NCBI GenBank assembly: GCA_044226015.1
Contig: JBGAHS010000011.1
Location: 32,001-96,000, forward strand
Source of the DNA: Candidatus Obscuribacteraceae bacterium
Lineage (GTDB): Bacteria > Cyanobacteriota > Vampirovibrionia > Obscuribacterales > Obscuribacteraceae
Reading direction: 5' to 3'
Length of the DNA stretch: 64,000 nucleotides
A program made the translations under genes and the position numbers. The notes under the pieces were generated by a model. That model was given only the letters and a program-made list of their open reading frames with translations, did not search any database and was not told the origin of the DNA. Positions 29,479 through 47,808 of this stretch are shown one piece after another; position 1 is the stretch's first letter; each line of letters starts with the position of its first letter.

Positions 29479-30309
29479 TTAACCGCTGACAGATAGTACC
29501 AGTTGTGGTGCTGGAATTCTGTGGTCAGCACGAATCGGAACAATCGCAGTGCCAACGACAAAGAACTCAATGACGTGTGAACTCCATCCGTAGTTGCCTT
29601 CGTAGATGTCTACACCAACAATTCCTTCAGCTTGTAAGGCTTCTGCTTCTGTCTGCATTCTTTCCATTGCCAGCTCACGCGCGTCATAGAGAGCTTGAGT
29701 GAAGTTGGTCATTTCAGTGTTAACACCGACTGTCTTGAACCATTGACCGAAAGTCTGGTGTGCAACGTGATAGACGCAGTTACCCATGACCATGCCTACT
29801 GGGCGATAGCCTGAACGCAAAAGTGTCCAGAAATCTTGACCCGAAAGATCGCTGGTAAACGGCAAGCCCTTAGCGGTCTTAAACGAATGGTCTCCCGCGC
29901 GATTTTTTACAGCTGTACCTATTGCTACAAATTCAGCCAGGTCGGAATTCCAATCCATATGTTTGACTTTGAGCCTGACCCCGACCACACCGTCAGCCCC
30001 GAGTTCCTGAGCTTCTTCTTCCATTCTGGACATTGCAAGTTCTCTGGCATGATACAGAGCCTGCGTCAAAACACTCATTTCTTCGTTTTTGGTCCAACGG
30101 GCAGATTGATAGCCAATATGATAAATCGATGAACCAACAACCATTCCGACAGGGTCGAAACCAGCTTCTTTCACTAGAAGAAACTCGTTTACGGAAAGGT
30201 CACTCGTAAACAAGGCCCGGTGACCTCCCTTTCCTTGCATCCACTGCAAGCGTTCCTTTGCGTGGTCAGGCAAATCTGCATGCTGATTGGGATCATTAGG
30301 ATTGGGCAT
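29479..30309 (-). CDS. Tandem YbjQ-like (UPF0145, heavy-metal-binding-type) domain protein
   Basis: Two FTSDLS...ARELAMxRMxxEA..LxAxG(V/I)VGV units. Confidence 0.8.
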   Translation of the reverse strand: MPNPNDPNQHADLPDHAKERLQWMQGKGGHRALFTSDLSVNEFLLVKEAGFDPVGMVVGSSIYHIGYQSARWTKNEEMSVLTQALYHARELAMSRMEEEAQELGADGVVGVRLKVKHMDWNSDLAEFVAIGTAVKNRAGDHSFKTAKGLPFTSDLSGQDFWTLLRSGYRPVGMVMGNCVYHVAHQTFGQWFKTVGVNTEMTNFTQALYDARELAMERMQTEAEALQAEGIVGVDIYEGNYGWSSHVIEFFVVGTAIVPIRADHRIPAPQLVLSVSG

Positions 30310-30365
30310 TGGTTTTCTCCTGCTTACTTTTTGGGCGGATACCTTTTATGGTTATGGAACCTGGC

Positions 30366-31394
30366 TTACTCATCGTCTTCACCAACTAGATTTCTGTCGG
30401 CCGCATCCCAATAATTGTTTTCGTACTCAGCAGTTGATCCTAACTGCCTGTACGATTTGCTAGCGAGGTCTAAGCACACCAGTGGTGCCGTATGATTTGG
30501 CTCGCGATTCGGATGAGCCGAAACTGCGGTTCCAATCATCACGTAATTCAAAAGCATGTCTGTATAACGAACGTCGTTTATTTCATATTCGACGAATTCC
30601 CTGCCAGGGTCTACGCTAACACCCACAGCTCCGTCTGCACTTAGGCGAGCAAGTTCTTGCTGCATCCTCGTGTTTGCGGATCTTGCTGCGTTTCGGTAGC
30701 CTTCAGTGAAAGAATACACTTCCTGATTTGGCGCAAACCAACCGTAAATTTGATTGCGCGTATTGGGATCCATGTGAATGTAGTATGCACAATTTCCCAT
30801 GACTACAGATCTCGGCAAATAGCCATCTTTATACAACTGCCAAAATTCCTGTCCGTTTAAGGCACTCGTAAAGGGTTCTTCCCCATCAGGCCAGTCAGGA
30901 ATTTTTATGGCAGTACCAAATGCGGTGAATTCTGTGACGTTAGAACTCCACTCATGGCGGCGCTTCTGCACCCTCACGCCAATTACACCTGATGCACCGA
31001 GAAGCGCGGACTCTTGCCTCATTCGATCAACCGCCGTTGAACGTGCATCTGACATTGCCAGTGTCACTGCACTAAGCTCGCCAGTCCATCTCTGATAGCT
31101 GGAAAAATTACCCCAAAAACTAATCTTGAAAAACGATGTACCCATCACTTGACCAAGAGTCTGAAAACCAGCCTGCTTGGTCAACAAAAATTCTGGGGTA
31201 CTCAAATCACTGGAAAAGAAATTACGTCCGAGGTCTCTTTCTTTCAGCAGTCTTTCGCGCGCTATAGGAGGGATTTCACCGCGTTCAAGAGCTGCGATAC
31301 ACTCTGCTTGACGCAGCTTTTCATTTTCCTGACGAGCCTTAAGCTCTTGCTTTGCTCGTTTCTCTTCTTCACTTTCTTTTCGCCAAAATGGCAT
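30366..31394 (-). CDS. Tandem YbjQ-like domain protein, paralog
   Basis: FSSDLS/FTSALN, LLGASGVIGV, LSADGAVGV; start reset to MPFWRK. Confidence 0.75.
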   Translation of the reverse strand: MPFWRKESEEEKRAKQELKARQENEKLRQAECIAALERGEIPPIARERLLKERDLGRNFFSSDLSTPEFLLTKQAGFQTLGQVMGTSFFKISFWGNFSSYQRWTGELSAVTLAMSDARSTAVDRMRQESALLGASGVIGVRVQKRRHEWSSNVTEFTAFGTAIKIPDWPDGEEPFTSALNGQEFWQLYKDGYLPRSVVMGNCAYYIHMDPNTRNQIYGWFAPNQEVYSFTEGYRNAARSANTRMQQELARLSADGAVGVSVDPGREFVEYEINDVRYTDMLLNYVMIGTAVSAHPNREPNHTAPLVCLDLASKSYRQLGSTAEYENNYWDAADRNLVGEDDE

Positions 31395-31398
31395 GATT

Positions 31399-31800
31399 TT
31401 ATCCTTCGACGAATCTACGCAAAGCATCCTTCATACGAGTATTTTTTTCGGCAACTCTAGTCAACTCTTTAACTATCTGATTAATGCATTCAGACAGTTC
31501 CATTTCGGTAGACTTGAGCGCAATACCGCGCACTATTTTCATTGACTTTGCTGAATAAGAAGCCATGCCCTTATCTTTACTGATTTGATAATGGGTTTCG
31601 TCAAAACGAACGAGAAGGTCTTCTATCGGTTTCTCTTTGGAGAAAATCCAACCACCTCTAGAGACCGTAACATTGTCGGGTAGCGCACCCTGCAACATGG
31701 TTGCAAGAGACTCGACTAAACTCTTAGCTTCTCGCCTGTCCATTTCCAGACTCGCAGCAAGAGTTTCAAACATCAACGGTTGATCTAATTCGTCTTCCAT
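31399..31800 (-). CDS. Hypothetical protein heading the YbjQ triad
   Basis: 133 aa, VRGIALKS motif, tightly coupled to the next gene. Confidence 0.7.
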   Translation of the reverse strand: MEDELDQPLMFETLAASLEMDRREAKSLVESLATMLQGALPDNVTVSRGGWIFSKEKPIEDLLVRFDETHYQISKDKGMASYSAKSMKIVRGIALKSTEMELSECINQIVKELTRVAEKNTRMKDALRRFVEG

Positions 31801-32089: not shown

Positions 32090-32485
32090 TTATTTAGCGT
32101 CTTGAGCTGGCAATTTATCAACTACTTCGCTGAAGCTTTTAACTTCCTGGAGCAATCTTTGCGGTTGCATTCTGGACAACCACAAACCGATAACACGGCG
32201 TCTATCTGTTGCCTTTTTCAGGGTTGGCGGACGAACGCCAAGCAGACGATCGCGAATCATTTTATTGCCTTCGCGGAAGTAGCAGTCACCAATTTGGCAA
32301 CCAGTAACGACTACTCCGTCAGCACCATTTTTCAAAGCAGCCTCAATCATCAACGGCTGAATCATGCCAGAGCATGGAAACTTAACGACATAGCAACCTG
32401 GCATGTCCTTAAGCTGGCTCTTCGAATCCATGATGTTAGTCAGGTCGCAAGAGCGTTCGCAGATCAGTGTCATTATCTTTGGCAT
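32090..32485 (-). CDS. MvhD/FlpD-type [2Fe-2S] protein (hydrogenase delta subunit family)
   Basis: C...FPCSG...GADGVVVTGCQIGDCYFREGN. Confidence 0.88.
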   Translation of the reverse strand: MPKIMTLICERSCDLTNIMDSKSQLKDMPGCYVVKFPCSGMIQPLMIEAALKNGADGVVVTGCQIGDCYFREGNKMIRDRLLGVRPPTLKKATDRRRVIGLWLSRMQPQRLLQEVKSFSEVVDKLPAQDAK

Positions 32486-32494
32486 ATCGGCATC

Positions 32495-33676
32495 CTAGGA
32501 TTGAGTAAGAAGAGCTTTGATCTTATTTGTAACTTCAGCATCTGGCTGCTCAGGCAAGTCGATTGCATCGAAAGCACAAGCTCCAACACAAAGTCCACAA
32601 CCAGAACAACGGAATGGAATTACAGTAGCGCGCAGTTTGAAACGAGAGCCGGCAGGTGCTGGCACCATTTCGATAGCTTCGTAAGGGCAATCTTTGTCGC
32701 ACAACGAGCATCCAGTGCATTTGTTGTCGACGACTGTGGCAGGGTCAAATGGATCGAGCTTGCCGGAAGCGCCTTCAACTAGGAATGGCATCGGAAGGAA
32801 TGTGATCAACAAAGTACCGAGAATAATCACGACCCAGAAAGTCATTGGCGACATCTGTGTCAGCATCCAGTATGGGAAAAGGAAGAACCAATCAACATCA
32901 AACGCATTTGGTTGTGTTGTGAGGTTAGCCATCTTGCCCATAGTGATTGGGTTGAAGAACACCACCATCAAAACAATCGCCATAAGAGCGTACTGAATCA
33001 CTGGAGGAGCAGTGAGCACTGGGCGAGCCATGCGCACATAGTGCAACCACAAACCGAAGATCAGGAAGAACGACATACCAATGTGGATGAACAGGAAGTT
33101 TGAAAGTGTGAGGTTGGTGATAGCGTTACCGTTTAAGAACCAGGCTTTCAGACCAGGTCCGATAACTGGCAATTGTTCGAAAGCGCTAACGCTCATACGG
33201 CAGAGAACCAGCGAGCGCTCATCCCAAACCAGGTAATATCCGGTTTGACCGATGAATAGCACAATGAGGAAAAGCACGATACCAGTGAACCATTGCAACC
33301 AACGGTATTGCCTATAACGGTCAGTCATCCACACGCGCAAGGCGTGTAAGACGATGGTGAGCACCATCGCATCACCAGCATATCGGTGAATGCCACGCAC
33401 CACATTGCCGAATGGAATCTTATTAGTAATGTAATCAACGGAAGTGAACGCGTTGATCAAATTGCTCGCCGAGTATGCACTATCAATCGTTGGAATGTAA
33501 TAGGCAAACAAGAGCAAGCCTGACAGAAACAAAACCCACAAGAAGAATTGGGGCAGAGCTCCGTGGTAATAGAAAGGATTGTATTTGCTCGTGAGCACCA
33601 TGTTGGTGGCATGCTCGAGCGGCAATCCTATTGTTTTGTTTAGCGCGTCTGTATAGACCTTTTGCTGCTGCGACAT
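32495..33676 (-). CDS. Cytochrome b fused to a C-terminal 2x[4Fe-4S] ferredoxin
   Basis: Four heme His (RGIH..VLH; FIH..WLH), VDWF, CTGCSLCxxxCP and CSGCGLCxxxC. Confidence 0.9.
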   Translation of the reverse strand: MSQQQKVYTDALNKTIGLPLEHATNMVLTSKYNPFYYHGALPQFFLWVLFLSGLLLFAYYIPTIDSAYSASNLINAFTSVDYITNKIPFGNVVRGIHRYAGDAMVLTIVLHALRVWMTDRYRQYRWLQWFTGIVLFLIVLFIGQTGYYLVWDERSLVLCRMSVSAFEQLPVIGPGLKAWFLNGNAITNLTLSNFLFIHIGMSFFLIFGLWLHYVRMARPVLTAPPVIQYALMAIVLMVVFFNPITMGKMANLTTQPNAFDVDWFFLFPYWMLTQMSPMTFWVVIILGTLLITFLPMPFLVEGASGKLDPFDPATVVDNKCTGCSLCDKDCPYEAIEMVPAPAGSRFKLRATVIPFRCSGCGLCVGACAFDAIDLPEQPDAEVTNKIKALLTQS

Positions 33677-33706: not shown

Positions 33707-34222
33707 CTACTTTTTAACTGGCAGAATTGTTTTTTCTTCGGCACCCCAACGACCCATCGCTTGAATAGCGACTGCGCCGAGGAAAAGAGCGACTCCTAAA
33801 AACAATGCATAAGCGTTGTAGACATAGTTTTTGTCTACTTGCAGCAGATCAAGAATCGTTTTGAGATTCTGCTCGCCGAGATTTTGCTGAATGTCTTTTA
33901 CGACTTGCTCACCATATTTGTCGCCGTTGGTTGCAACGATTTGAGCTTTCCAGTTTTTCATTACATCAGCATTTTGTGCGTCAGGAGCTGGCTTAGGACC
34001 AGGCAACATGCCGAGCATCTGAATTCCAAAACCTGCATATTGATTCATCAGCTCTGGAATTCGAACACAAGACTCACCTGACTCGCGTTTTTCCGGGAAA
34101 ACTTGAGCTGGTAAAAGCTCAGCCGCTGGCAAAAACACGAGGCTTGCTACAAGCACGCCAACCGCTGCCAAGAGGCAGAGTCCCATGCTCATAGGGTCTG
34201 GTTTTCTTTCTTCAGGACCCAT
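33707..34222 (-). CDS. Two-TM membrane protein of the respiratory operon
   Basis: TMs at both ends, GGAG RBS, lies inside the operon. Confidence 0.7.
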   Translation of the reverse strand: MGPEERKPDPMSMGLCLLAAVGVLVASLVFLPAAELLPAQVFPEKRESGESCVRIPELMNQYAGFGIQMLGMLPGPKPAPDAQNADVMKNWKAQIVATNGDKYGEQVVKDIQQNLGEQNLKTILDLLQVDKNYVYNAYALFLGVALFLGAVAIQAMGRWGAEEKTILPVKK

Positions 34223-34225
34223 TTC

Positions 34226-34555
34226 TTACTCCCTTCCTTCGCTCTTGTCGCCGTTATTGAGATCGTTTCCGACCTTCTTCTCAATGGAATTATTTTTTCT
34301 TTCGTTCAAAGATTTCTCTATTTTTTCAAACAGATCTATGCGCTTGCGCAGATTGCCTTTCTTCTTCTCTTCGACATAGATGTAGTAAGCCTGCACCATG
34401 ACAAAGAAGATAGTAGCGGCAGTTCCACCGATCAGGACACCCCAGTCGCCCAAGCCCCCACTCTGATTGACTTGCCTCCACCCGGCGAAGAACCAGGAGA
34501 GAGCAACAACCGAAGCGGCAAATATGGTGAGTTTGAGCGACCAGTGCATAGTCAT
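34226..34555 (-). CDS. Small two-TM membrane protein of the respiratory operon
   Basis: Two hydrophobic helices and a basic tail. Confidence 0.7.
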   Translation of the reverse strand: MTMHWSLKLTIFAASVVALSWFFAGWRQVNQSGGLGDWGVLIGGTAATIFFVMVQAYYIYVEEKKKGNLRKRIDLFEKIEKSLNERKNNSIEKKVGNDLNNGDKSEGRE

Positions 34556-34572: not shown

Positions 34573-36429
34573 TCAGGATGCAGCTGGAGCTGCAGGTTCT
34601 GGGGTAGGCGCCGCAGGAGCTGGAGCTGGTGGTGTCTTGAACTTCGGCAGCATGACGAAACATGCCACTGTGGTTGCAGCACCTACAGCCATCCAGATCC
34701 AATCGATTTCAGGAACGGCTAGCGGATATGGTGCACCAGACACTGCTTTTTCCAGTCCTGGTGTCATGCGCTTGGTGAAGGTCAAATAGTCGAAACACCA
34801 ACGATTTTGCACCATGTAATCCAGGGTGTTCAGATATGGCACGGCTGTTGGCACGCCGTCTTTGCTGACGACCATGAAGCTAGGAATAGCTTTGAAGAGC
34901 GGGTCTAGCCAACCACCAGCGTCCGGAGCTGTAACGAGTGCATACAAGTCTTGCACTTGTTTTTCGCCTGGGTAACCGTGAGTTGTCACCAACTCATGGT
35001 AGTTCCAGTAGCCCGGATTGTAATTAGGTTTATTGGCTGGGTCGCTGTCGATGAGCACTTTAACGAGTGCTTCCGCCTGCTCGCCCTTCGAGATGCTGCC
35101 CAATGTTTTGCATAGACCATAGGTCCAAGCTTGTGTCAGTGGGCTGAAGAACATTTCGGTGAGAGCCATGTAGTAGTACACAATTGCCCAGAATGTCTGG
35201 ATTGCTGCGGTAATACCCATGACGATACAACCTTTGGCAGCGACTGCTTTTTCCTGAACGGTCTTGAAGTCTTTACCGTAGACCCAGAGTTGCAGAAGTA
35301 TGCCGAGGTCAATCAATCCCCACAAGAATGAGCGCCAATATGGTGGGTCATTGTGGATGTTGGCGATGTTGACGATGATGAGTAGAGAGAACACGATCCA
35401 GCAAACGAAGCCCATCAAAGCAACGAAGAAAATAAGTGGACGCTTGTAAATGTCTTTCTCTGCACCGGTTGCCCATACATCTATGAAGGGCAGCAAAATA
35501 ACCGATATCGGAATGACCATTGTGATTTCAGTAGCAACTACGGGCTCGAGGTATTTGTACATCTGATACAAACCGAGGAAGTACCAGTCCGACAAAATCG
35601 GCAACGGAGTTACGTCAGGGTTGGAACGGTGTCCAAGAGCTGCTGGCATGATGATTGCAATAATCACGACCATCAATAGAACGACCATGCGTTTGGTCCA
35701 ATTAATTGGAATTCGCTTGAAGCCCGTTTTGTAGAAATACAGTTCGACGAAAATAAGTGGTATCGCCGAGAATGCCAGGTGGATAGAGAAGAATCTAGTA
35801 ATAGTTTCTTGCGTGATAGCGCCACCAGCGCCGAGCAAGAACTCTGCAGTGTTCCAACCGAGGTGAACTGATTTGACCAGAGGCAAATAGAAGTCACCCA
35901 TGAATGGGAACTGGTCCATGTACGTCGGGAACGTGGCGAATACCTTCGTAGCCCAAAACGCGCGCTGGTTCCAGATGAGCAGATATCCTGTAAGACCGGA
36001 ATACATAGAGAGGAGCAGAGTAATCAGCGCGATGGCTATATTGAACTCTTTTCCAGGTTTGTAGTCACCGCAAATGAACATGCGGTAAAGACGAATGGTA
36101 GCAGCGATAATCATCGCGTCGGCACCATACTTGTGACATCCTCTCCAGATGTTGCCGAATGGAATTTCGTGCTGAATATGCAGGATGGAGTCGAACGCAG
36201 CGGGCTTGGTCGGTACGTACCAGATGAAAAGAATACATCCAGTAGCCATGACCAGGAACCAGACCAGATAGAAGATTCCGCCTATGCAATAGAACGGATT
36301 CGTCTTGGCCTGCTCCGCATGGTGCTCGTCCATGATGTCGATATTGTTTAGCCGCGTGTTAATCCAGTCGCCAGCTTGCTTCATGAAGCCGGCCATACTG
36401 AATCCACTGGCGTTTGTTGTACTAGGCAA
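34573..36429 (-). CDS. Long cytochrome b6-like protein (b6 + subunit-IV-like + extra TM/periplasmic part), two heme His replaced
   Basis: NPFYCIGG, RGCH, TGYLLIWNQRAFWA, TRFFSIH, SDWY. Confidence 0.88.
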   Translation of the reverse strand: MPSTTNASGFSMAGFMKQAGDWINTRLNNIDIMDEHHAEQAKTNPFYCIGGIFYLVWFLVMATGCILFIWYVPTKPAAFDSILHIQHEIPFGNIWRGCHKYGADAMIIAATIRLYRMFICGDYKPGKEFNIAIALITLLLSMYSGLTGYLLIWNQRAFWATKVFATFPTYMDQFPFMGDFYLPLVKSVHLGWNTAEFLLGAGGAITQETITRFFSIHLAFSAIPLIFVELYFYKTGFKRIPINWTKRMVVLLMVVIIAIIMPAALGHRSNPDVTPLPILSDWYFLGLYQMYKYLEPVVATEITMVIPISVILLPFIDVWATGAEKDIYKRPLIFFVALMGFVCWIVFSLLIIVNIANIHNDPPYWRSFLWGLIDLGILLQLWVYGKDFKTVQEKAVAAKGCIVMGITAAIQTFWAIVYYYMALTEMFFSPLTQAWTYGLCKTLGSISKGEQAEALVKVLIDSDPANKPNYNPGYWNYHELVTTHGYPGEKQVQDLYALVTAPDAGGWLDPLFKAIPSFMVVSKDGVPTAVPYLNTLDYMVQNRWCFDYLTFTKRMTPGLEKAVSGAPYPLAVPEIDWIWMAVGAATTVACFVMLPKFKTPPAPAPAAPTPEPAAPAAS

Positions 36430-36979
36430 TTCCCCCGGCCTCCAGTGAAACGATACTTATTTTGTCCCCTTCTGTTTTCACAGTGAATTGTCTGGGTGGG
36501 CGAGGTGCTGGTCCTGAGACCACCTTGCCTCCCTGCGCAATGTCATAAACACTCAAATGGCAAGGGCAGGCGAATACCGGTCCTTGCGGTTTAAAGTTGT
36601 AGCCCTTCAAACACTCATCTGGATCCTTCACGAAATTGAAGATGCAACCCAGGTGAGGACAAATACGGCTGTACGCTACTACATCGCCGGTCGGCAGTTT
36701 AACTGCAAAACCAGGAATCTTGCGTACTTCCAGACCTTCAGGATTGTATTCCTTATATGATTGCGAAAACATGAATTGCAAACAGGTCCACTCTTCCGGG
36801 AAGTCTTTATTCGTGAAGGATACTTCTTCCAGCGCTTTAGGCTGGTCAGATGGACCAAGAATGTCCATCGGCTTGATGGTCGGTCTTAGATAACGCATGA
36901 ATGGCGAAAGCAGTAGCCCGAACGTTGCAGCAAGTGGAATTGCTGCCATAAAAGATCTCCTAGTTGTTCCCTCAGCCAT
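36422..36979 (-). CDS. Rieske [2Fe-2S] protein
   Basis: Tat motif TRRSFM, CPHLGC, CPCHLSVY, GPAPRP. Confidence 0.95.
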   Translation of the reverse strand: MAEGTTRRSFMAAIPLAATFGLLLSPFMRYLRPTIKPMDILGPSDQPKALEEVSFTNKDFPEEWTCLQFMFSQSYKEYNPEGLEVRKIPGFAVKLPTGDVVAYSRICPHLGCIFNFVKDPDECLKGYNFKPQGPVFACPCHLSVYDIAQGGKVVSGPAPRPPRQFTVKTEGDKISIVSLEAGGIA

Positions 36980-37022: not shown

Positions 37023-38021
37023 CTAGTGAGTTTTGTCTTCGAGTTTTCCGTTTATTACATTCTTTGGACTTTCTGCTTGACCGGCATTGTCGTTGTGCGG
37101 AGCATCAGCTTTCTTTTCCAGGTCACTCTTTGTTTCCTGGTCAGGAGTTCCGCCGGTTGAGGTCTCGGTTCCAGTAGCTCCAGTCGCTTCCTCAGGAGTC
37201 TTGGTGGTGTTTTCGCCAGCGTCTTTCGGCTTATCAGATGTTCCAGCAGCTGCTGGAGCTTTAGGAGCGGCCGTAGCGGCAGAGGCAACTTCAGTTGTTG
37301 CAGCATTGCTAACATGGAAGTTACGTACATAAGCGACTAGCTTCTTGATGTAAGCATGGTCGAATTTTACGTTCTTCTTCTTGTCGGTTTTGCCGAGGAA
37401 GTTAGGCATGCCTTCCCACTTGATGCCGTTAGCGATGTGATCGAACAGAGTGTCATCTGTTCTGTCATAAAAGCGTTGGAAAGTCTGGAAGTTTGCTGGG
37501 TTTGGCTCGAGGTTGCGAGCCAGAGGACCGTCGCCATCACCCTTGGTGCCATGGCACACAGCGCAATTAGAACCAAATACAGCATTAACTTCGTCAATTT
37601 CGCCTTGAGTCAGCGGAGGGCAGCCCAGCGAACGAGCATAGAATACGAGGTTCCATGTGTCTTTCGGGCTGATCTTGCCTTGCATATGATGCTGGTCAAG
37701 CTTTCCGTAAGTAAGCGCCTTGTACAGATCAACTGGTTTGACCATCGCCATATAGCGATGATCGTTTACTGCAGCTTTAGCGCCTTCAGGCTTAGTGCCA
37801 CCATCTGCGCCATGGCAGGAAGCACAATTCTGCTTCTCCCAGACCACCTTACCATCTGGAATAGACGGTCTGTCGTCAGGATAGACAATGGTGTCAGTTG
37901 GAGCCAGAGTTTGATTGACGCTGATCAGAGGGTCTGTCAGAGCCACCTTCGTCTCTGTCTGCCCGCAAGATGCGAGAGCAAAGACTACTGGAATTAGGGG
38001 AAGAGTTTTAGTGAGTTTCAT
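37023..38021 (-). CDS. Di-heme cytochrome c lipoprotein
   Basis: Lipobox LASC, CASCH, CAVCH. Confidence 0.88.
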   Translation of the reverse strand: MKLTKTLPLIPVVFALASCGQTETKVALTDPLISVNQTLAPTDTIVYPDDRPSIPDGKVVWEKQNCASCHGADGGTKPEGAKAAVNDHRYMAMVKPVDLYKALTYGKLDQHHMQGKISPKDTWNLVFYARSLGCPPLTQGEIDEVNAVFGSNCAVCHGTKGDGDGPLARNLEPNPANFQTFQRFYDRTDDTLFDHIANGIKWEGMPNFLGKTDKKKNVKFDHAYIKKLVAYVRNFHVSNAATTEVASAATAAPKAPAAAGTSDKPKDAGENTTKTPEEATGATGTETSTGGTPDQETKSDLEKKADAPHNDNAGQAESPKNVINGKLEDKTH

Positions 38022-38042: not shown

Positions 38043-38228
38043 TTAATATCCAAAGAAGGGGACCCAAGAGGTCAGAGCCCACGTCACAATCAAGAAGAAG
38101 ATAACGATGAGTGAGAGTGGGGGCGGTCCTTCGCCAACACGATACTCAGCAACTTCTTCATAGTGCTCTTCAGGCACCACCGAGTTCGGTGCTGCTGGCT
38201 TTGGAGTAGCTTTTACTTCGTCAGCCAC
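38043..38228 (-). CDS. Small TM protein resembling the CcoP N-terminal anchor
   Basis: EYRVGEGPPPLSLIVIFFLIVTW; GGAG RBS. Confidence 0.6.
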   Translation of the reverse strand: MADEVKATPKPAAPNSVVPEEHYEEVAEYRVGEGPPPLSLIVIFFLIVTWALTSWVPFFGY

Positions 38229-38244
38229 GACAATATCTCCTTAT

Positions 38245-38487
38245 TTACTCAGCTTGGGCTTTGGCGCGAACTACATCTATACGGGCTTTGGCGATGGATG
38301 AAAGACCAACTTCCTCTCCGTCGTCAAGCATATCGAATTTCGAAGATTCCATATCTTCAAACTCGCCGTTTCTGAAAGCCCACCACATTGCTGCGATCGC
38401 GATCAAAAAGAACAACATGCAAACACCGTAGGCTACGTACACGCCTGGCTGCAAACCAGCCTGGTTTAGTAGGCAATTTGGACACAT
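38245..38487 (-). CDS. ccoS: cbb3 assembly protein CcoS/FixS-like
   Basis: TM then WWAFRNGEFEDME...MLDD. Confidence 0.75.
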   Translation of the reverse strand: MCPNCLLNQAGLQPGVYVAYGVCMLFFLIAIAAMWWAFRNGEFEDMESSKFDMLDDGEEVGLSSIAKARIDVVRAKAQAE

Positions 38488-38489
38488 GA

Positions 38490-39599
38490 TTAATGCCCTC
38501 CTGCTGGTGCTGGTGCATCGGTGTGCACGACAGGAGCCGGCGCACCCAAGCCCTTAGTCAAGCTTGCTGGTGGATTTGTGATGGTAGAACTATTGTCCGG
38601 GTTCTTCGTGCCATCGCTGTTGTCTTCCCAATAAGTGGATTCCACAACAGACTCACCTGGTTCAGGTGCAGACTCAGCAGAACCGCTCTTCGGTTCATAA
38701 ACCTGGTTAGACAAACGTGGCAGCCTGGTTGGTTCGACCTTGTTAAGCTGGTCAATATTATTGACTGTCTCTTCGTGGTCTTTCTGCAATGTCTTCAGGT
38801 AAGCGACTAGGTACCACATTTGTTCTTCAGAGAGAATTTCGCCAAAGTGTGGCATGCGAGTACCGGCTACACCTTCTCTGATTCTGTAGAACCAAAAGGT
38901 ATCAGGATATTGCTTGAAGAAGTCTCTGGTGAAGTTAGCTGGTTTCTTCTCGAGGGTAATGGAGTTAGGACCATTTCCGCGACCTTCCAAACCATGGCAT
39001 ACTGCGCAGTTTTGCGTGTAGATACCACGACCAGCATTGGCAGCAGCATCAGCTTCAGTATCAACTTTCTTTCTTGCCAGAAACGCATCGTATTCTTCTG
39101 GAGCTTGAACGTAGGTTGTGACCTTACGGTTGTTGCCGAGTGATTGCAGGTAAGCAACCAGGTCGTTCATGTCGCGATCAGAAAGGAAGCTGAAACTTGG
39201 CATGATGGAACCTGGCTTCACAGCACGTGGCTGCACCAGGTGAGCCTTCTGCCACTCGGAAGCCATGCGAAGACCTTCGTTGGTCAAGTCAGGACCAGTA
39301 CGAGCAGTTCCTAATTGGTGAGGAGTTTCGTTAACATAGTCACCAGCCTTAACGAGTGGACCATAACCGCGGTCTTGCAAGCGAGTGAACTGCGTATGGC
39401 AGTAGAAACAACCCTCACGTACGTAGACCTGGCGACCACGCTCGGGGTCTGCGACCTTGGCAAATGGAGTCTCTTTATAAGCATTAGCAGATGACGTAAG
39501 CTTCGGATTGAAGAGCACCATCGGCAGTAGCACCGTCGCCGTAATAATGGCGAAGAAGGTGATGATGATACCAGTGGCGCCTAGGCGGTAACCGTTCAT
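38490..39599 (-). CDS. ccoO: cbb3 oxidase subunit II fused to a second cytochrome c domain
   Basis: GRQVYVREGCFYCHTQ, RTGPDL, SIMP; second CAVCH. Confidence 0.9.
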   Translation of the reverse strand: MNGYRLGATGIIITFFAIITATVLLPMVLFNPKLTSSANAYKETPFAKVADPERGRQVYVREGCFYCHTQFTRLQDRGYGPLVKAGDYVNETPHQLGTARTGPDLTNEGLRMASEWQKAHLVQPRAVKPGSIMPSFSFLSDRDMNDLVAYLQSLGNNRKVTTYVQAPEEYDAFLARKKVDTEADAAANAGRGIYTQNCAVCHGLEGRGNGPNSITLEKKPANFTRDFFKQYPDTFWFYRIREGVAGTRMPHFGEILSEEQMWYLVAYLKTLQKDHEETVNNIDQLNKVEPTRLPRLSNQVYEPKSGSAESAPEPGESVVESTYWEDNSDGTKNPDNSSTITNPPASLTKGLGAPAPVVHTDAPAPAGGH

Positions 39600-39600
39600 T

Positions 39601-40989
39601 TTAAGCCTTTACCTCCTGAACTTTAGCCTTCTGAGCTGTAGCTGACGACTTGGAGTAAAGTGTCTTCCAAGCGTTATAGCCGAATAGGACTTGACCCAGA
39701 ACGATCATGATTCCGCTGATGGAACGAAGAATCCAGTAAGGCTTCAGTTCGGTTCCCCACAGATCCACTGGAATGGCGTGGTGCCAGCCAGCTGATTGAA
39801 TCAGACCTGCCACAGTCAATGAAGACATCATGAGTCCAAAGCCTGCGGTCTTGAGCCACCAATGTGCCCGGATAAGTCCCTGACTATGCCATTCTCTTCC
39901 GGTGAGCCTGGGCAATCCATAATATATAGATGCGACTGTGATGAATGAGAAGGTTCCAAGAAGTGCAAGGTGAGCATGTCCGACCACCCATTGTGTGAAG
40001 TGGAGGTACCAGTTAACCCAACGAGTTGCTTGGAAAGGACCTTGCGTACAAGTAATCAAATAGAAGATGTTTGATGTGAGCACAAAGCGCAGTGGGATGT
40101 CAGTCACGCACATCTGCCATTTGCCTTTCATGGTCATGAAGAAGTTCGTAAGAACGGTCATAACTGGTACGAGCAAAAATACTGACGAGATGATCGCGAT
40201 AGCTTTCAACCACTCAGGTACAGGAGACTGGGTGATGTGGTGTGTGCCGGTAGGCGCGTAGAAGAGAGCGATGCCCCAGAATCCCAACATGGAGAGTCCG
40301 TGGCTGTAGAGTGGGTTCTGAGTGATACGTGGTAGCAGGTAGTACATCATGCCTACGCCCACTGTCGTGAACCACATACCGAGAATGTTGTGTCCGTAGA
40401 ACCATCCGATGATGGCATCGTTCAAACCTGGGAGAGCAACGAAGGTTCTCTGCCCGATGATGTAGACCAGAGGAAACCAAAAAAGCGCTCCGAGAAAATA
40501 CCAGAGCGACACATAGAGCTTTTTGATTTTGCGATTTACGACGGTCATATATAGATTGAGCGCCGTACAAATTAGTGCCACCACTACGAGACAGTCGAGA
40601 ATGGCACCTAACTCTGCGTACTCACGACCTTCCGTGAACCCGTTCAACAGCGTGCACATCGCACCGACCATCAACAAATTCCACGCCCACATGGTGAAGT
40701 TGCCGAGGCGTTCACTCCAGAGCTTTGATTTGGTGAGTGATGGAATCATGTAGAACATTGAACCTACATAACCCATCGACAGCCAACCTATGGCCACCGT
40801 GTTCACGTGCCACATACGTAAATGGGGCATCGAGAGCTGGGGCACATTGTGGACCAGGTCTGGGAAAGAGAACTCGAGTCCGGCAAGCATTCCGGCTCCC
40901 ATTCCTAAAATGGACCAGAAAATTGCGGAAAGGATGAAATTGCGCGCCGCGCTTCCCTCCCTGTCGCTTAATAGCCTGTCAACTAACAT
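39601..40989 (-). CDS. ccoN: cbb3-type (C-family) heme-copper oxidase subunit I
   Basis: WHVN, GREYAE, WFYGHN, GTHH, WVVGHAHLALLG. Confidence 0.93.
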   Translation of the reverse strand: MLVDRLLSDREGSAARNFILSAIFWSILGMGAGMLAGLEFSFPDLVHNVPQLSMPHLRMWHVNTVAIGWLSMGYVGSMFYMIPSLTKSKLWSERLGNFTMWAWNLLMVGAMCTLLNGFTEGREYAELGAILDCLVVVALICTALNLYMTVVNRKIKKLYVSLWYFLGALFWFPLVYIIGQRTFVALPGLNDAIIGWFYGHNILGMWFTTVGVGMMYYLLPRITQNPLYSHGLSMLGFWGIALFYAPTGTHHITQSPVPEWLKAIAIISSVFLLVPVMTVLTNFFMTMKGKWQMCVTDIPLRFVLTSNIFYLITCTQGPFQATRWVNWYLHFTQWVVGHAHLALLGTFSFITVASIYYGLPRLTGREWHSQGLIRAHWWLKTAGFGLMMSSLTVAGLIQSAGWHHAIPVDLWGTELKPYWILRSISGIMIVLGQVLFGYNAWKTLYSKSSATAQKAKVQEVKA

Positions 40990-41783: not shown

Positions 41784-42533
41784 TTAGTGTGCATCTCTCC
41801 CTTCTGCTGATTCCCGTTCGTCATGATTGCAACTACCCTGCAGAATTGAAATGACTATTACGGCAATGCTTGCTCCAAACAAAGGAGCAAACAGGTAAAT
41901 CCACCAATCAGTGTAATTGCCTGCTAATATCGCTGGACCCAAAGTTCTGGCAGGGTTCATTCCCGCACCACTAATTGGCTCAGCAATGATGTGTCCTACA
42001 AGAATTGCAAATGCAACAGCTATAGCAGCGTTACTTCCAGTAACTTTATGCTTGTTAGCAGTTCCCAAAATAACTAAAAGGAGTACACAAGATGCCAACG
42101 ATTCAGCAAAGAATCGTTGCCACTCAAGAAACGAATCGTGACGCGAAACCAGGTCGGATTGACCACTCAGTAAGAAAACAAACAATGAAGCAATTATTGC
42201 CCCTGTAAATTGTGCAGCCACGTAAGGAAAAACTTTCCAAACAGGAAATGCTCTTCTGATGGCAAAGGAATAGGTAACAGCCGGGTTAAAGTGAGCACCG
42301 GACGTATTTCCGACGGCTAAGATCAAAGCTCCAACAACCAGCGGAGTTCCGCAAATAGCCTCAAAATGTGATAACAATGACTGACTGTATAGCACGGACG
42401 GTAGCACCGCTGACAGAGTCAAGACCAGGGTACCCACCAGCTCTGCGATGAGACTTCTCCAGAGGGGAATTGGAGCCTCATCCTCCTTGTGAACTGTCTT
42501 CTCAAGTTTACTTTGAAATATGACCGTGGACAT
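41784..42533 (-). CDS. Aquaporin/MIP channel
   Basis: SGAHFNPAVT and GAGMNPART. Confidence 0.93.
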   Translation of the reverse strand: MSTVIFQSKLEKTVHKEDEAPIPLWRSLIAELVGTLVLTLSAVLPSVLYSQSLLSHFEAICGTPLVVGALILAVGNTSGAHFNPAVTYSFAIRRAFPVWKVFPYVAAQFTGAIIASLFVFLLSGQSDLVSRHDSFLEWQRFFAESLASCVLLLVILGTANKHKVTGSNAAIAVAFAILVGHIIAEPISGAGMNPARTLGPAILAGNYTDWWIYLFAPLFGASIAVIVISILQGSCNHDERESAEGRDAH

Positions 42534-45603: not shown

Positions 45604-47808
45604 ATGAAGCAAACAAACTCTGTCCATATAGGAATTGCAGTCAGTTTAGTAATGTGCTTACAATCCGCTCAATTAATATACGCAGCGACAGAGAGTGTCT
45701 CTGGAAATATTCCTGCCAAAGGCACCGATAAACAAGGTACTGCTGCTGGCAGCACCGGCAGTGGTGGCGAATTGCATCAAACATCCGGAGCTGATCTTCC
45801 AAGCTTAACGACACAACAAGGTACGACTGTTTCTGATGATCAAAACTCACTGAAAGCCGGCTCTCGCGGACCTACGATACTTGAAGATTTTGTCGGCCGT
45901 GAAAAGCTTTTTCACTTCGATCATGAAAGAATTCCAGAGCGAGTTGTCCATGCACGTGGCTTCGGAGTACACGGATTTTTCGAGACTTACAAATCACTTT
46001 CAGACCTCACTAAAGCAGATATTTTTAAACGAGCTGGAGAAAAGACGCCTGTATTCGTAAGGTTCTCCACTGTCGCAGGAAATAAGGGATCGGTCGACCT
46101 GGCAAGAGATGTTCGAGGTTTTGCAGTTAAGTTTTACACAAAGGAAGGCAATTGGGATCTCGTTGGCAATAACATTCCCGTATTCTTCATTCAAGACGGC
46201 ATGAAATTCCCTGACCTTGTTCATGCAGCCAAACAAGAGCCAGACAGAGGATTTCCTCAAGCTCAAACTGCACACGACAATTTTTGGGATTTTATTTCGT
46301 TGACACCTGAATCAATGAACATGATTATGTGGGTCATGTCCGATCGTGCCATACCAAGATCATTTCGCTTTATGGAAGGTTTTGGAGTGCATACATTCCG
46401 GCTGGTTAACGCAAACGGAAAGAGCACCTTCGTAAAATTTCACTGGAAGCCAAAGCAAGGAATGCAATCAGTATTGTGGAATGAAGCAGTTAAAATAAAT
46501 GGCGCAGATCCTGACTTTCATAGACGAGACATGTGGAATGCAATTCAAGAAGGTCATTATCCCGAGTGGGAACTGGGAATGCAATTATTCGATGAAGACT
46601 TTGCCAAAAGATTCGATTTTGATGTTCTTGATGCAACCAAGATAATTCCAGAAGAGCTAATTCCTATACAGAAAGTTGGTCGTCTCGTTCTGAACAGAAC
46701 AGTGGATAATTTCTTCGCTGAAACTGAACAAGCAGCGTTCTGTACTCAAAATATAGTACCGGGTATAGATTTCACTGATGACCCTCTTTTGCAATTGAGA
46801 AACTTTTCGTATCTCGATACTCAACTGAAGAGATTGGGCTCACCGAACTTTACGCATTTGCCTATAAATGCACCAAAATGTCCCGTCTTCAACTTCCAAC
46901 AAGATGGGCATATGGCAATGACTAATCCAAAAGGCAGAATTAATTACGAACCGAATTCCTGGGGTGGCCCGCGCGAGAACTCAGAAAATGGATTTAAGTC
47001 ATTTCCCGAAGAAGTTTCAGGCACAAAACAAAGGAGTCGTTCAGAAACTTTTGCTGATCACTACAGCCAAGCCAGGCAATTTTATATCAGCCAGACGCCA
47101 GTTGAACAAGACCACATAGCAGATGCTCTTGTTTTCGAACTCTCGCGTGTCGAGAATCCCAATATCCGCGTGAGAATAGTCAGCCACCTTGAAAATATTG
47201 ATACTGGACTGGCACGTAAGGTCGCAGACGGGTTAGGACTGAAGCAACTGCCAGAAGCGGCTAAGGCTGCAAGACCAACAAAAATGGATTTGCCTCAATC
47301 TCCAGCTTTGAGCATTTTGAAAAATGGACCTAGCTCATTCAAGGATAGAAAGCTCGGTATTTTTGTCTCAGATGGTATAGATAGTAAGCAATTCAATTCT
47401 TTGAAAGCAGCAGCGGAAAAAGAAGGTGCTGACGTTGCTGTAATCGCACCAACTATCAGTGGGGTCACCACCAGCGATGGCGTCCACATTGGAGCAGACT
47501 TCAAAATAAATGGTGGTCCATCTGTTCTCTTCGACTCTGTTGCATTACTTATGTCCAACGATGGCGCCGCGAAACTAGCTAGTGAATCAACTGCAAAAGA
47601 CTTTGTGTCCGATGCCTTCGCGCATCTAAAAGTAATCGGTTATAACGAAGCGGCCCTAACACTACTTGCAAAAGCAGGCGTGCCCGCTAACGATGAAGGA
47701 ATCATTCAACTAAATGGAGCAGACACAGTAAATACTTTCATTGACAACTGCAGAAAGATCAAAATCTGGAGCCGCCAAGCGAAAGTGAAGATGGCCTCAA
47801 ACATCTAA
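45604..47808 (+). CDS. katE: Large-subunit heme catalase (HPII type)
   Basis: [30 protein letters not shown]-terminal GATase-like domain. Confidence 0.95.

Follow-up and report, generated by a model that had tools for sequence, protein, structure and literature searches.

Eleven minus-strand genes spanning 8.9 kb, with intergenic gaps of -8 to 43 nt, follow one another in the window analysed here, a 64,000-nucleotide stretch of DNA from a Candidatus Obscuribacteraceae bacterium, one of the relatives of Cyanobacteria that do not photosynthesise, whose genome is 92% complete. In the direction of transcription they are ccoN, ccoO, ccoS, a small ORF and the genes for a dihaem cytochrome c, a Rieske protein, a long cytochrome b (b1), two small membrane proteins, a second cytochrome b (b2) and an MvhD-type protein (Table 1). 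The b1 gene, whose nearest named homologs are from Candidatus Obscuribacterales, is a member of the complex III-cbb3 operon of Vampirovibrionia. Its TTG start overlaps the Rieske stop codon by 8 nt, with GGAGG upstream, and the identical 618-residue protein is database entry P0001. Contigs of two runs, X1 and X2, cover the gene with zero differing letters, and either run may be the source of the DNA.

Table 1. The eleven genes of the operon, in order of transcription (positions are those of the window)
Feature	Coordinates	Strand	Matches and remarks
ccoN, C-family (cbb3-type) oxygen reductase subunit I	39601..40989	-	PF00115 E 2e-81; TIGR00780 below cut-off
ccoO fused to a second cytochrome c domain	38490..39599	-	FixO + Cytochrom_C
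ccoS/FixS	38245..38487	-	PF03597
Small one-helix membrane protein	38043..38228	-	no Pfam match; present in 60/60 class loci
Dihaem cytochrome c	37023..38021	-	two CxxCH, PF13442/PF00034
Rieske protein, high-potential S-x-Y signature CPCHLSVYD	36422..36979	-	PF00355
b1, long cytochrome b, 618 aa	34573..36429	-	bL ligands H99/H217, R113, Y231, invariant E229, C-terminal extension
Small two-helix membrane protein	34226..34555	-	no Pfam match
Two-helix membrane protein, fast-evolving	33707..34222	-	no Pfam match; BLAST match in 19/60 loci
b2, six-helix cytochrome b, four haem His, C-terminal 2[4Fe-4S] domain after helix F	32495..33676	-	
MvhD/FlpD-type [2Fe-2S] protein	32090..32485	-	PF02662; 5odc_D E 2.8e-13

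Sixty loci from eight families, selected from strong class matches to b1, provide the comparison within Vampirovibrionia. The ccoN product has GHNILG in all 60. The dihaem cytochrome c is the likely acceptor for the Rieske protein, whose signature in the class orthologs is S-x-Y in 46 and S-x-F in 14, the former as defined in the available text of PMC4122944. The first of the two small proteins 3′ of b1 is recognized in 49 of the 60 loci and in most metagenome loci, and at the place of the second a small hydrophobic ORF is present in the other families inspected. The MvhD gene is single-copy in this genome; of the 301 genomes of the class 158 contain it, and almost all of these have one copy. 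Its product has the four cysteines that the family uses for [2Fe-2S] binding (C9, C38, C63 and C68, conserved in 90% or more of the 58 class orthologs and in 58/58 metagenome orthologs). One family of the class gives no match to b1 or to MvhD (0/98 each). A promoter and terminator scan of the operon stayed at chance level, and one RNA run contains small pieces of the operon, none of those listed being in b1.

By sequence and by fold b1 is a member of the cytochrome b superfamily with helices A-G: PF00033 is over cut-off and the top Foldseek and VIA matches to its model (pLDDT 82.7) are all cytochromes b, with 329 residues of 7q21_B aligned (VIA Z 20.4, rmsd 5.3). Its C-terminal extension is longer than in other families, and comparison of the whole-b1 model assigned no fold to it. 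The earlier note on this DNA had proposed that both histidines for haem bH are lost, and alignment bears this out. Against Chlamydomonas cytochrome b6 (1q90_B, E 4e-24) Cys48 of b1 falls on Cys35, His99 on His86, Arg113 on His100 and His217 on His187, so that the bL ligands are in place and Arg113 replaces the helix-B bH histidine. In helix D, Tyr231 is at H+14 and Phe232 at H+15, the position used by b6, and there is therefore no helix-D bH histidine in either register. The register itself is fixed because five distant relatives (P0129, P0130, P0131, P0133 and P0134) have a histidine exactly at 231. The four axial histidines for bL and bH of a canonical Q-cycle cytochrome are thus not all present in b1.

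The substitutions are not peculiar to this copy. His99 and His217 with Arg or Lys at 113 occur in 120/120 homologs, in the 60 orthologs from eight families and in 166 of 167 distinct pairs of b1 and b2 (both genes were present in 191 of 220 loci, which supplied the pairs), the one remaining having a gap. Arg113, Glu229 and Tyr231 are shared by all 120 of the top homologs, query counted; class-wide, position 113 is Arg in 43 and Lys in 17, and Tyr231 is in 60/60. The helix-C Trp and Gly that lie beside bH are variable in b1, but invariant in b2 (W129 and G132, 167/167). Some distant relatives of b1, namely 3 of the 80 metagenome loci examined and the five representatives above, keep the helix-D histidine with the helix-B Arg still present, and the genome here has two further ordinary four-His cytochromes b elsewhere; both observations count against the explanation that we come to prefer. 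Other histidines were sought as bH ligands and none fits: H189 and H359 are present in 120/120 close homologs, but class-wide in only 43/60 and 28/60, and belong to two loops, cd and post-G, that the topology places on the p side. The loss of the two bH histidines is genuine and extends across the family. That b1 is merely a decaying paralog has virtually no chance of being right, as nothing was found in its favour and it is already refuted by the same substitutions recurring across eight families and other phyla, by the intact frames of the matches listed and by a dN/dS of about 0.05-0.11 (a rough count against five close relatives). With so low a value, and with the bL histidines and Qo region kept, b1 is under purifying selection and is not decaying.

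A second claim of the earlier note, that b1 keeps the cysteine for haem cn, stands for this copy, which has CIGG with Cys48 at the position of b6 Cys35, and does not stand for the family. Cysteine is found there in 2/120 homologs (query counted), 0/60 class-wide orthologs and 4/167 distinct pairs, a complete CxGG is present in 2/167 pairs, and codon 48 of ten close relatives specifies Ser in eight and Ala in two. The conserved CxGG of cytochrome b6 is thus absent from the b1 family, as is the split into b6 and subunit IV, one 618-residue chain spanning both. As to the covalently bound haem of such cytochromes, a search of this 92%-complete genome for CCB2/4 gave no homolog, which is not decisive, since Firmicutes are not known to have CCB2/4 either. 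Haem cn is linked to haem bn via water and a propionate in the account given in the available part of PMC5600118. As haem cn would need the bH site, absence of that site in b1 counts against its retention. With the cysteine sporadic, the bH site gone and CCB2/4 not found, retention of haem cn in b1 was rejected; Cys48 is a local variant, and the haem cn part of the earlier note was wrong. It is very improbable that b1 instead binds an n-side haem through non-His ligands, either Tyr231 or a cn-type link to Cys48, and runs a near-normal cycle. Tyr231 in 60/60 class orthologs, the kept G50, Y47 and R116, and CIGG in this copy would suit such an arrangement, but many distant members have F, L, R or M at 231, Arg or Lys113 at the axial position faces invariant Glu229, Cys is in only 4/167 and the helix-C Trp/Gly pair is lost.

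The quinol oxidation site of b1 has fared quite differently. SDWY aligns with PEWY of subunit IV, as had been claimed, and WNQRA(F/Y)WA and PILSDWYFL occur in 60/60 class loci, so that b1 has both the Qo motif and the cd1 helix of canonical complexes. W159, A160 and Y288 are present in 167/167 pairs. The 60 class loci were chosen by whole-protein search and are free of motif bias; the metagenome loci were chosen by b1 motif patterns and their b1 conservation figures are inflated for that reason. The mean top-residue fraction in the cd1 and ef regions is 0.92 and 0.89 for b1 versus 0.63 and 0.51 for b2, the Qo region of b1 being the best-conserved part tested.

The b2 protein is the reverse case, as the earlier note had it, and all the features named are in the ORF: H97, H111, H198 and H212, NPFYYHG, VDWF and two ferredoxin CxxCxxCxxxC motifs. 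The four axial histidines are present in 167/167 pairs, as in canonical cytochromes b. Alignment to Rhodobacter capsulatus cytochrome b is gap-free over 121-207 with identical numbering, and L158 of b2 therefore falls on Rhodobacter G158. This position in b2 is Leu in 125, Ile in 34, Val in seven and Met in one of the 167, while in b1 it is Ala in 167/167. No Trp occurs at position 157 among the 160 of 167 residues listed, and the motif has decayed to xD(W/V/L)(F/L), for instance DWF, DVF or DLL. An intact Qo site has a small residue at 158, Trp157 and PxWY, and by comparison that of b2 is degenerate. At the Qi position of Rhodobacter H217, none of the 165 rows listed out of 167 has His, with His at 218 in 40/167. 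Rhodobacter K251 and D252 are also Qi ligands; the start of helix E in b2 has no conserved Asp, the loop being much shorter and the Qi alignment uncertain. Four n-side residues, N33, Y36, R215 and P219, are invariant. The position of the cn cysteine is Y37 in 164/167, with no cn Cys, and the adjacent H38, considered as a special ligand, is in 58/58 class orthologs but is T in 44 of 54 outside the class. The b2 model has helices A-F only, with a pLDDT below 50 for the ferredoxin domain, and as that domain comes after helix F it should be cytoplasmic, on a topology taken from b6f. On the HdrA2 profile the matches of the ferredoxin domain and MvhD adjoin each other (566-642 and 648-774).

The two cytochromes travel together. 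The ccoN-to-b1 order and the Rieske gene are kept in 60/60 class loci, with b2 and MvhD following in 58; in the remaining two genomes (G086 and G173) b2 and MvhD are away from the operon on another contig, so that genomes with a split operon, too, encode both b1 and b2. Outside the class more bH-less members emerged when 1.84 billion representatives were searched with a profile, with the source labels Holophagaceae and Armatimonadetes, and 67 of the 80 metagenome loci score outside the class. The core of cytochrome c, Rieske, b1, small ORF, b2 and MvhD recurs in them, b2 being downstream of b1 in 59/59 loci whose sequence continues for 2 kb or more beyond b1. Many high-GC loci (24 long loci were examined) are without a neighbouring cbb3 and are located between ccm genes and polyprenyl diphosphate synthase, which suggests that the cells concerned use the module as their main complex III. 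A quick tree of 89 rows has b1 as one group (support 97) and b2 with two Fe-S fusions (P0309 and P0310) as another (support 100, on long branches), with similar subgroups in both; the 32 four-His rows have support of only 77, so that the tree gives no sisterhood of b1 and b2. Coevolution in the paired alignment (167 pairs, effective number about 58) does not exceed that of shuffled pairings, with a top inter-chain z of 7.9 versus 7.4-10.8 in three shuffles. The family is a real, conserved, multi-phylum variant of Rieske/cytochrome b complexes.

A b1 without bH ligands beside a b2 with a degenerate Qo site points to an asymmetric cytochrome b dimer, and it is quite probable from these complementary losses that b1 and b2 form a heterodimer. 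It is distinctly improbable that they are separate homodimers, with b1 oxidising quinol without a Q cycle (bL only, and both electrons to the Rieske chain) and b2 an independent transmembrane wire. The position of b2 and MvhD in G086 and G173 is compatible with separate roles, as is the occurrence of b2-like proteins without a Rieske gene reported in the available text of PMC4122944. On the other side, bc1 with H212N in both halves has no activity in vivo (PMC4152375, in the portion at hand), b2 comes after b1 in 59/59 metagenome and 58/60 class loci, and both split-operon genomes kept b2.

In the asymmetric heterodimer an electron on bL would have no exit inside b1, and by that reasoning it must cross to b2. 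The predicted path starts at a single Qo site on b1, where the quinol oxidised would be menaquinol. The first electron would pass via the Rieske protein and the dihaem cytochrome c to cbb3 oxidase and O2, while the second would go from bL of b1 to bL of b2, bH of b2, the 2[4Fe-4S] domain and the [2Fe-2S] of MvhD. From MvhD it could be delivered to a soluble acceptor, either ferredoxin or flavodoxin or a flavoprotein making NAD(P)H, and the reduced carrier might re-enter via complex I without NuoF. That the b1-b2 dimer splits menaquinol electrons at one Qo and exports one of them to a cytoplasmic carrier is a tentative proposal, to which we give slightly less than an even chance. The fuller version, an asymmetric multi-phylum complex III with one Qo and no Qi in which O2-driven quinol bifurcation reduces cytoplasmic ferredoxin or NAD(P)+ via an Hdr-derived Fe-S arm, is possible and is put forward with considerable reserve. 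Gene order, co-occurrence and complementary losses are what the sequences show, while haem content, dimer formation, topology of the Fe-S arm, quinone species, direction and acceptor are what we infer.

Several observations speak for export. The b2 protein does not conserve the canonical Qi ligands, and the ferredoxin domain plus MvhD form an arm that resembles consecutive HdrA2 parts. Export was proposed for the related anammox bc1 (10.1101/855817) and for an eNOR-linked cytochrome b/Fe-S/FAD fusion (10.64898/2026.01.22.701106) in the available parts of those papers. Futalosine menaquinone genes are present in the genome (menB below cut-off in the genome search), and a high-potential Rieske signature alongside them would provide extra driving force; PDWY cytochromes b were found only with low-potential Rieskes according to the available text of Kao and Hunte (PMC4122944). 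The energetics are tight and count against export: with -80 mV for MQ, a membrane potential of 150 mV and textbook values, the calculation requires a high-potential chain of about +310 mV for NAD+ and about +410 mV for ferredoxin. Also against it, there is no flavoprotein acceptor within the operon, and NuoF, HdrA, Rnf/Nqr and FeFe hydrogenase homologs were not found in the 92%-complete genome, in which the HdrA2 P0312 as tblastn query gave no match at E 1e-5. The genome's NiFe enzyme scores best as a sulfhydrogenase, so an HdrABC-MvhAGD bifurcating complex, with its HdrA flavoprotein and Mvh hydrogenase, was discarded for this 92%-complete genome. The two 2-oxoacid:ferredoxin oxidoreductases and the Nuo cluster that the genome encodes fit either direction, input or export.

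The invariant n-side residues of b2 and His at 218 in 40/167 make a non-canonical Qi site possible, which counts against export and is the starting point for a reading that we regard as rather unlikely. The dimer would be the same, with the Fe-S arm an input, menaquinone at a non-canonical Qi of b2 being reduced by an electron from bH together with another that ferredoxin delivers via MvhD and [4Fe-4S]. Such a reaction would be downhill, 2-oxoacid oxidoreductases that reduce ferredoxin are encoded in the genome and NuoF was not found there, and b6f has been proposed as a ferredoxin-quinone reductase (FQR) in the available text of PMC7908018, a role of which this arm would be the hard-wired form. 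Besides the conserved n-side residues, a dimer of half-sites without a second Qi and the cn electron store might well be helped by a second donor. Yet conservation of the canonical Qi ligands does not extend to b2, the cn cysteine is replaced (Y37 in 164/167), H38 is not general (T in 42/167), and a drop of about 700 mV for one net charge, on our estimate, would be wasteful compared with a ferredoxin-using complex I.

It is improbable that the whole b2 arm is an inbound wire for fast O2 scavenging, from a cytoplasmic donor to MvhD, [4Fe-4S], bH, bL of b2 and bL of b1, with quinone then reduced at a p-side site of b1 or the Rieske protein and oxidase fed. The grouping of b2 with P0309 and P0310 (support 100, long branches), the combination in P0310 of cytochrome b, Fe-S, MvhD and cytochrome c, and the lack of a Rieske gene in the PDWF-FeS clade in the accessible description (PMC4122944) lend it something. 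However, the strictly kept Qo motif of b1 and high-potential Rieske are a set-up for quinol oxidation, the wire would dissipate membrane potential, and in many loci labelled Armatimonadota there is no nearby cbb3, the module being between cytochrome c maturation genes and polyprenyl synthase.

If the export reading is true, this is quinone-based electron bifurcation in which a cytoplasmic exit replaces the Q cycle. With the Fe-S arm as exit, aerobic respiration would directly yield low-potential reductant that could feed a complex I without NADH module, and the picture of respiration in the sister group of Cyanobacteria, whose complex has so far been annotated as b6f-like, would change. The relevance in nature of electron transfer between the halves of cytochrome bc dimers is an old point of debate, with tests confined to engineered mutants, and such transfer appears to be built into the b1-b2 family as a necessity. 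The b1 family escapes any survey that requires four His ligands.

A Melainabacterial complex III/IV fusion operon was reportedly described by Soo et al. in Science in 2017. Such an operon of Melainabacteria (Vampirovibrionia), in which the gene of a C-family oxygen reductase adjoins petC and genes for cytochrome b, is in Matheus Carnevali et al. 2019 (PMC6349859; 10.1101/531145). It is the same gene cluster as here, and one paper notes two cytochrome bc proteins; in the available printed text it is annotated as b6f-like or bc, with no mention of missing bH ligands, a degenerate second Qo or MvhD, a term with 0 matches in the text of PMC6349859 at hand. In the full-text literature covered, no account was found of a bH-less cytochrome b that has a Qo-degenerate, Fe-S-fused partner; Soo 2017, ten Brink 2013 and Dibrova 2013 are outside that coverage and may bear on the point. 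The operon is thus already in print, and it is the complementary losses of b1 and b2 that were not found in the literature.

With canonical bc1 and b6f complexes (1q90_B, 1zrt_C and 7q21_B) the fold, the bL ligands, the position of the Qo motif and the Rieske and cytochrome c partners are shared. Those complexes are homodimers with four His per monomer, whereas here b1 is without bH and the Qo of b2 is degenerate, and both proteins, unlike the canonical ones, have Asp at His+5 in helix B. QmoC-QmoB of sulfate reducers has a similar proposed passage of quinol electrons, with a flavoprotein, though QmoC has an unrelated cytochrome b fold. For the anammox Rieske/cytochrome b complexes with NAD(P) oxidoreductase subunits (10.1101/855817, PMC5600118) the available texts propose the same route from quinol via b haems and Fe-S to low-potential carriers in the cytoplasm; as described there they include a flavoprotein, while the b1-b2 operon has none. 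Closer to b2 is the PDWF-FeS clade, which likewise combines cytochrome b, a 4Fe-4S domain and MvhD (Kao and Hunte 2014, PMC4122944). In the portion of that paper available the clade is described as without Rieske, whereas a Rieske gene (60/60 class loci) and a bH-less partner are present here and MvhD is a separate gene; the likeness of b2 to the clade is through its grouping with P0309 and P0310, the clade's named members being known by description. As His-deficient sequences were removed in that study, judging from the same text, b1 would have been filtered out. The available accounts of His-deficient cytochromes b of Pyrobaculum (PMC4122944) and of cyanobacterial subfamily K (PMC5600118) tell of haem-ligating His loss as in b1, but of one His only and with no complementary partner or Fe-S arm described.

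The nearest functional parallel is engineered. In Rhodobacter bc1 the Qo site is disabled by G158W and bH is lost with H212N, and, in the part of the report available, symmetric knockouts fail to support growth while a cross-inactivated dimer supports it via the bL-bL bridge (Ekiert et al. 2014, PMC4152375). An asymmetric b1-b2 pair linked by bL-bL transfer would therefore, by analogy, have a working precedent, as in the H212N/G158W enzyme, too, one half is without bH ligation and the other is bulky at 158. The engineered bc1 keeps its Qi site and completes the Q cycle, whereas b1 and b2 are two diverged genes, with no canonical Qi ligands in b2 and an Fe-S arm that is predicted to be cytoplasmic.

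The C-terminal extension of b1, the cytochrome b without bH histidines, is longest in the source genome's family, where the protein has about 600 aa as against 380-530 aa in other families. One b1 copy (L250:8998-10356) has the stretch from helix E to the Qo motif repeated in tandem, near-exactly, which is probably an assembly artefact. Five remoter cytochromes b also lack bH histidines (P0147, P0151, P0154, P0207 and P0233), with PDWY or ADW as the motif, and in two of them long inserts precede helix B. In P0310, a fusion protein that groups with b2, cytochrome b shares one chain with 2[4Fe-4S] and MvhD, and a cytochrome c forms the C-terminal part.

Features of the operon, its surroundings and other loci of the same genome
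Feature	Position	Remark
b1 C-terminal extension	b1 residues about 390-618, window about 34573-35260	additional helices and soluble region; no fold assignment
Aquaporin-family (MIP) gene	window 41784-42533	upstream of operon
Large catalase-like ORF	window 45604-47808	label by inspection
Nitrate reductase-like operon (L002)	G000:C12:413440-423099	nar labels by inspection
Further Rieske and four-His cytochrome b (L001)	G000:C4:145215-149404	flanked by two membrane proteins
NiFe hydrogenase, four genes (L277)	G000:C9:265534-269510	best score sulfhydrogenase (group 3b-like)

Two adjoining ORFs at window 29479-31427 share similar internal repeats, presumably resembling YbjQ-type heavy-metal-binding domains. 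Elsewhere in the genome, L002 encodes a Rieske domain fused to a NarI-like protein; after it come a cytochrome b of the ordinary kind, with four His and PEWY, and a cytochrome c. One of the two membrane proteins of L001 has a CxxCH motif, and maturation genes lie close to the hydrogenase.

Both b1 (window 34573-36429) and its partner b2 (window 32495-33676) carry Asp five residues after the helix B histidine, as residue 104 in b1 (166 of the 167 pairs) and residue 102 in b2 (164 of 167), and so do the cytochrome b-Fe-S fusions P0309 and P0310. Such a buried carboxylate close to bL could lower its potential; in cytochrome b6 the same position is Ser.
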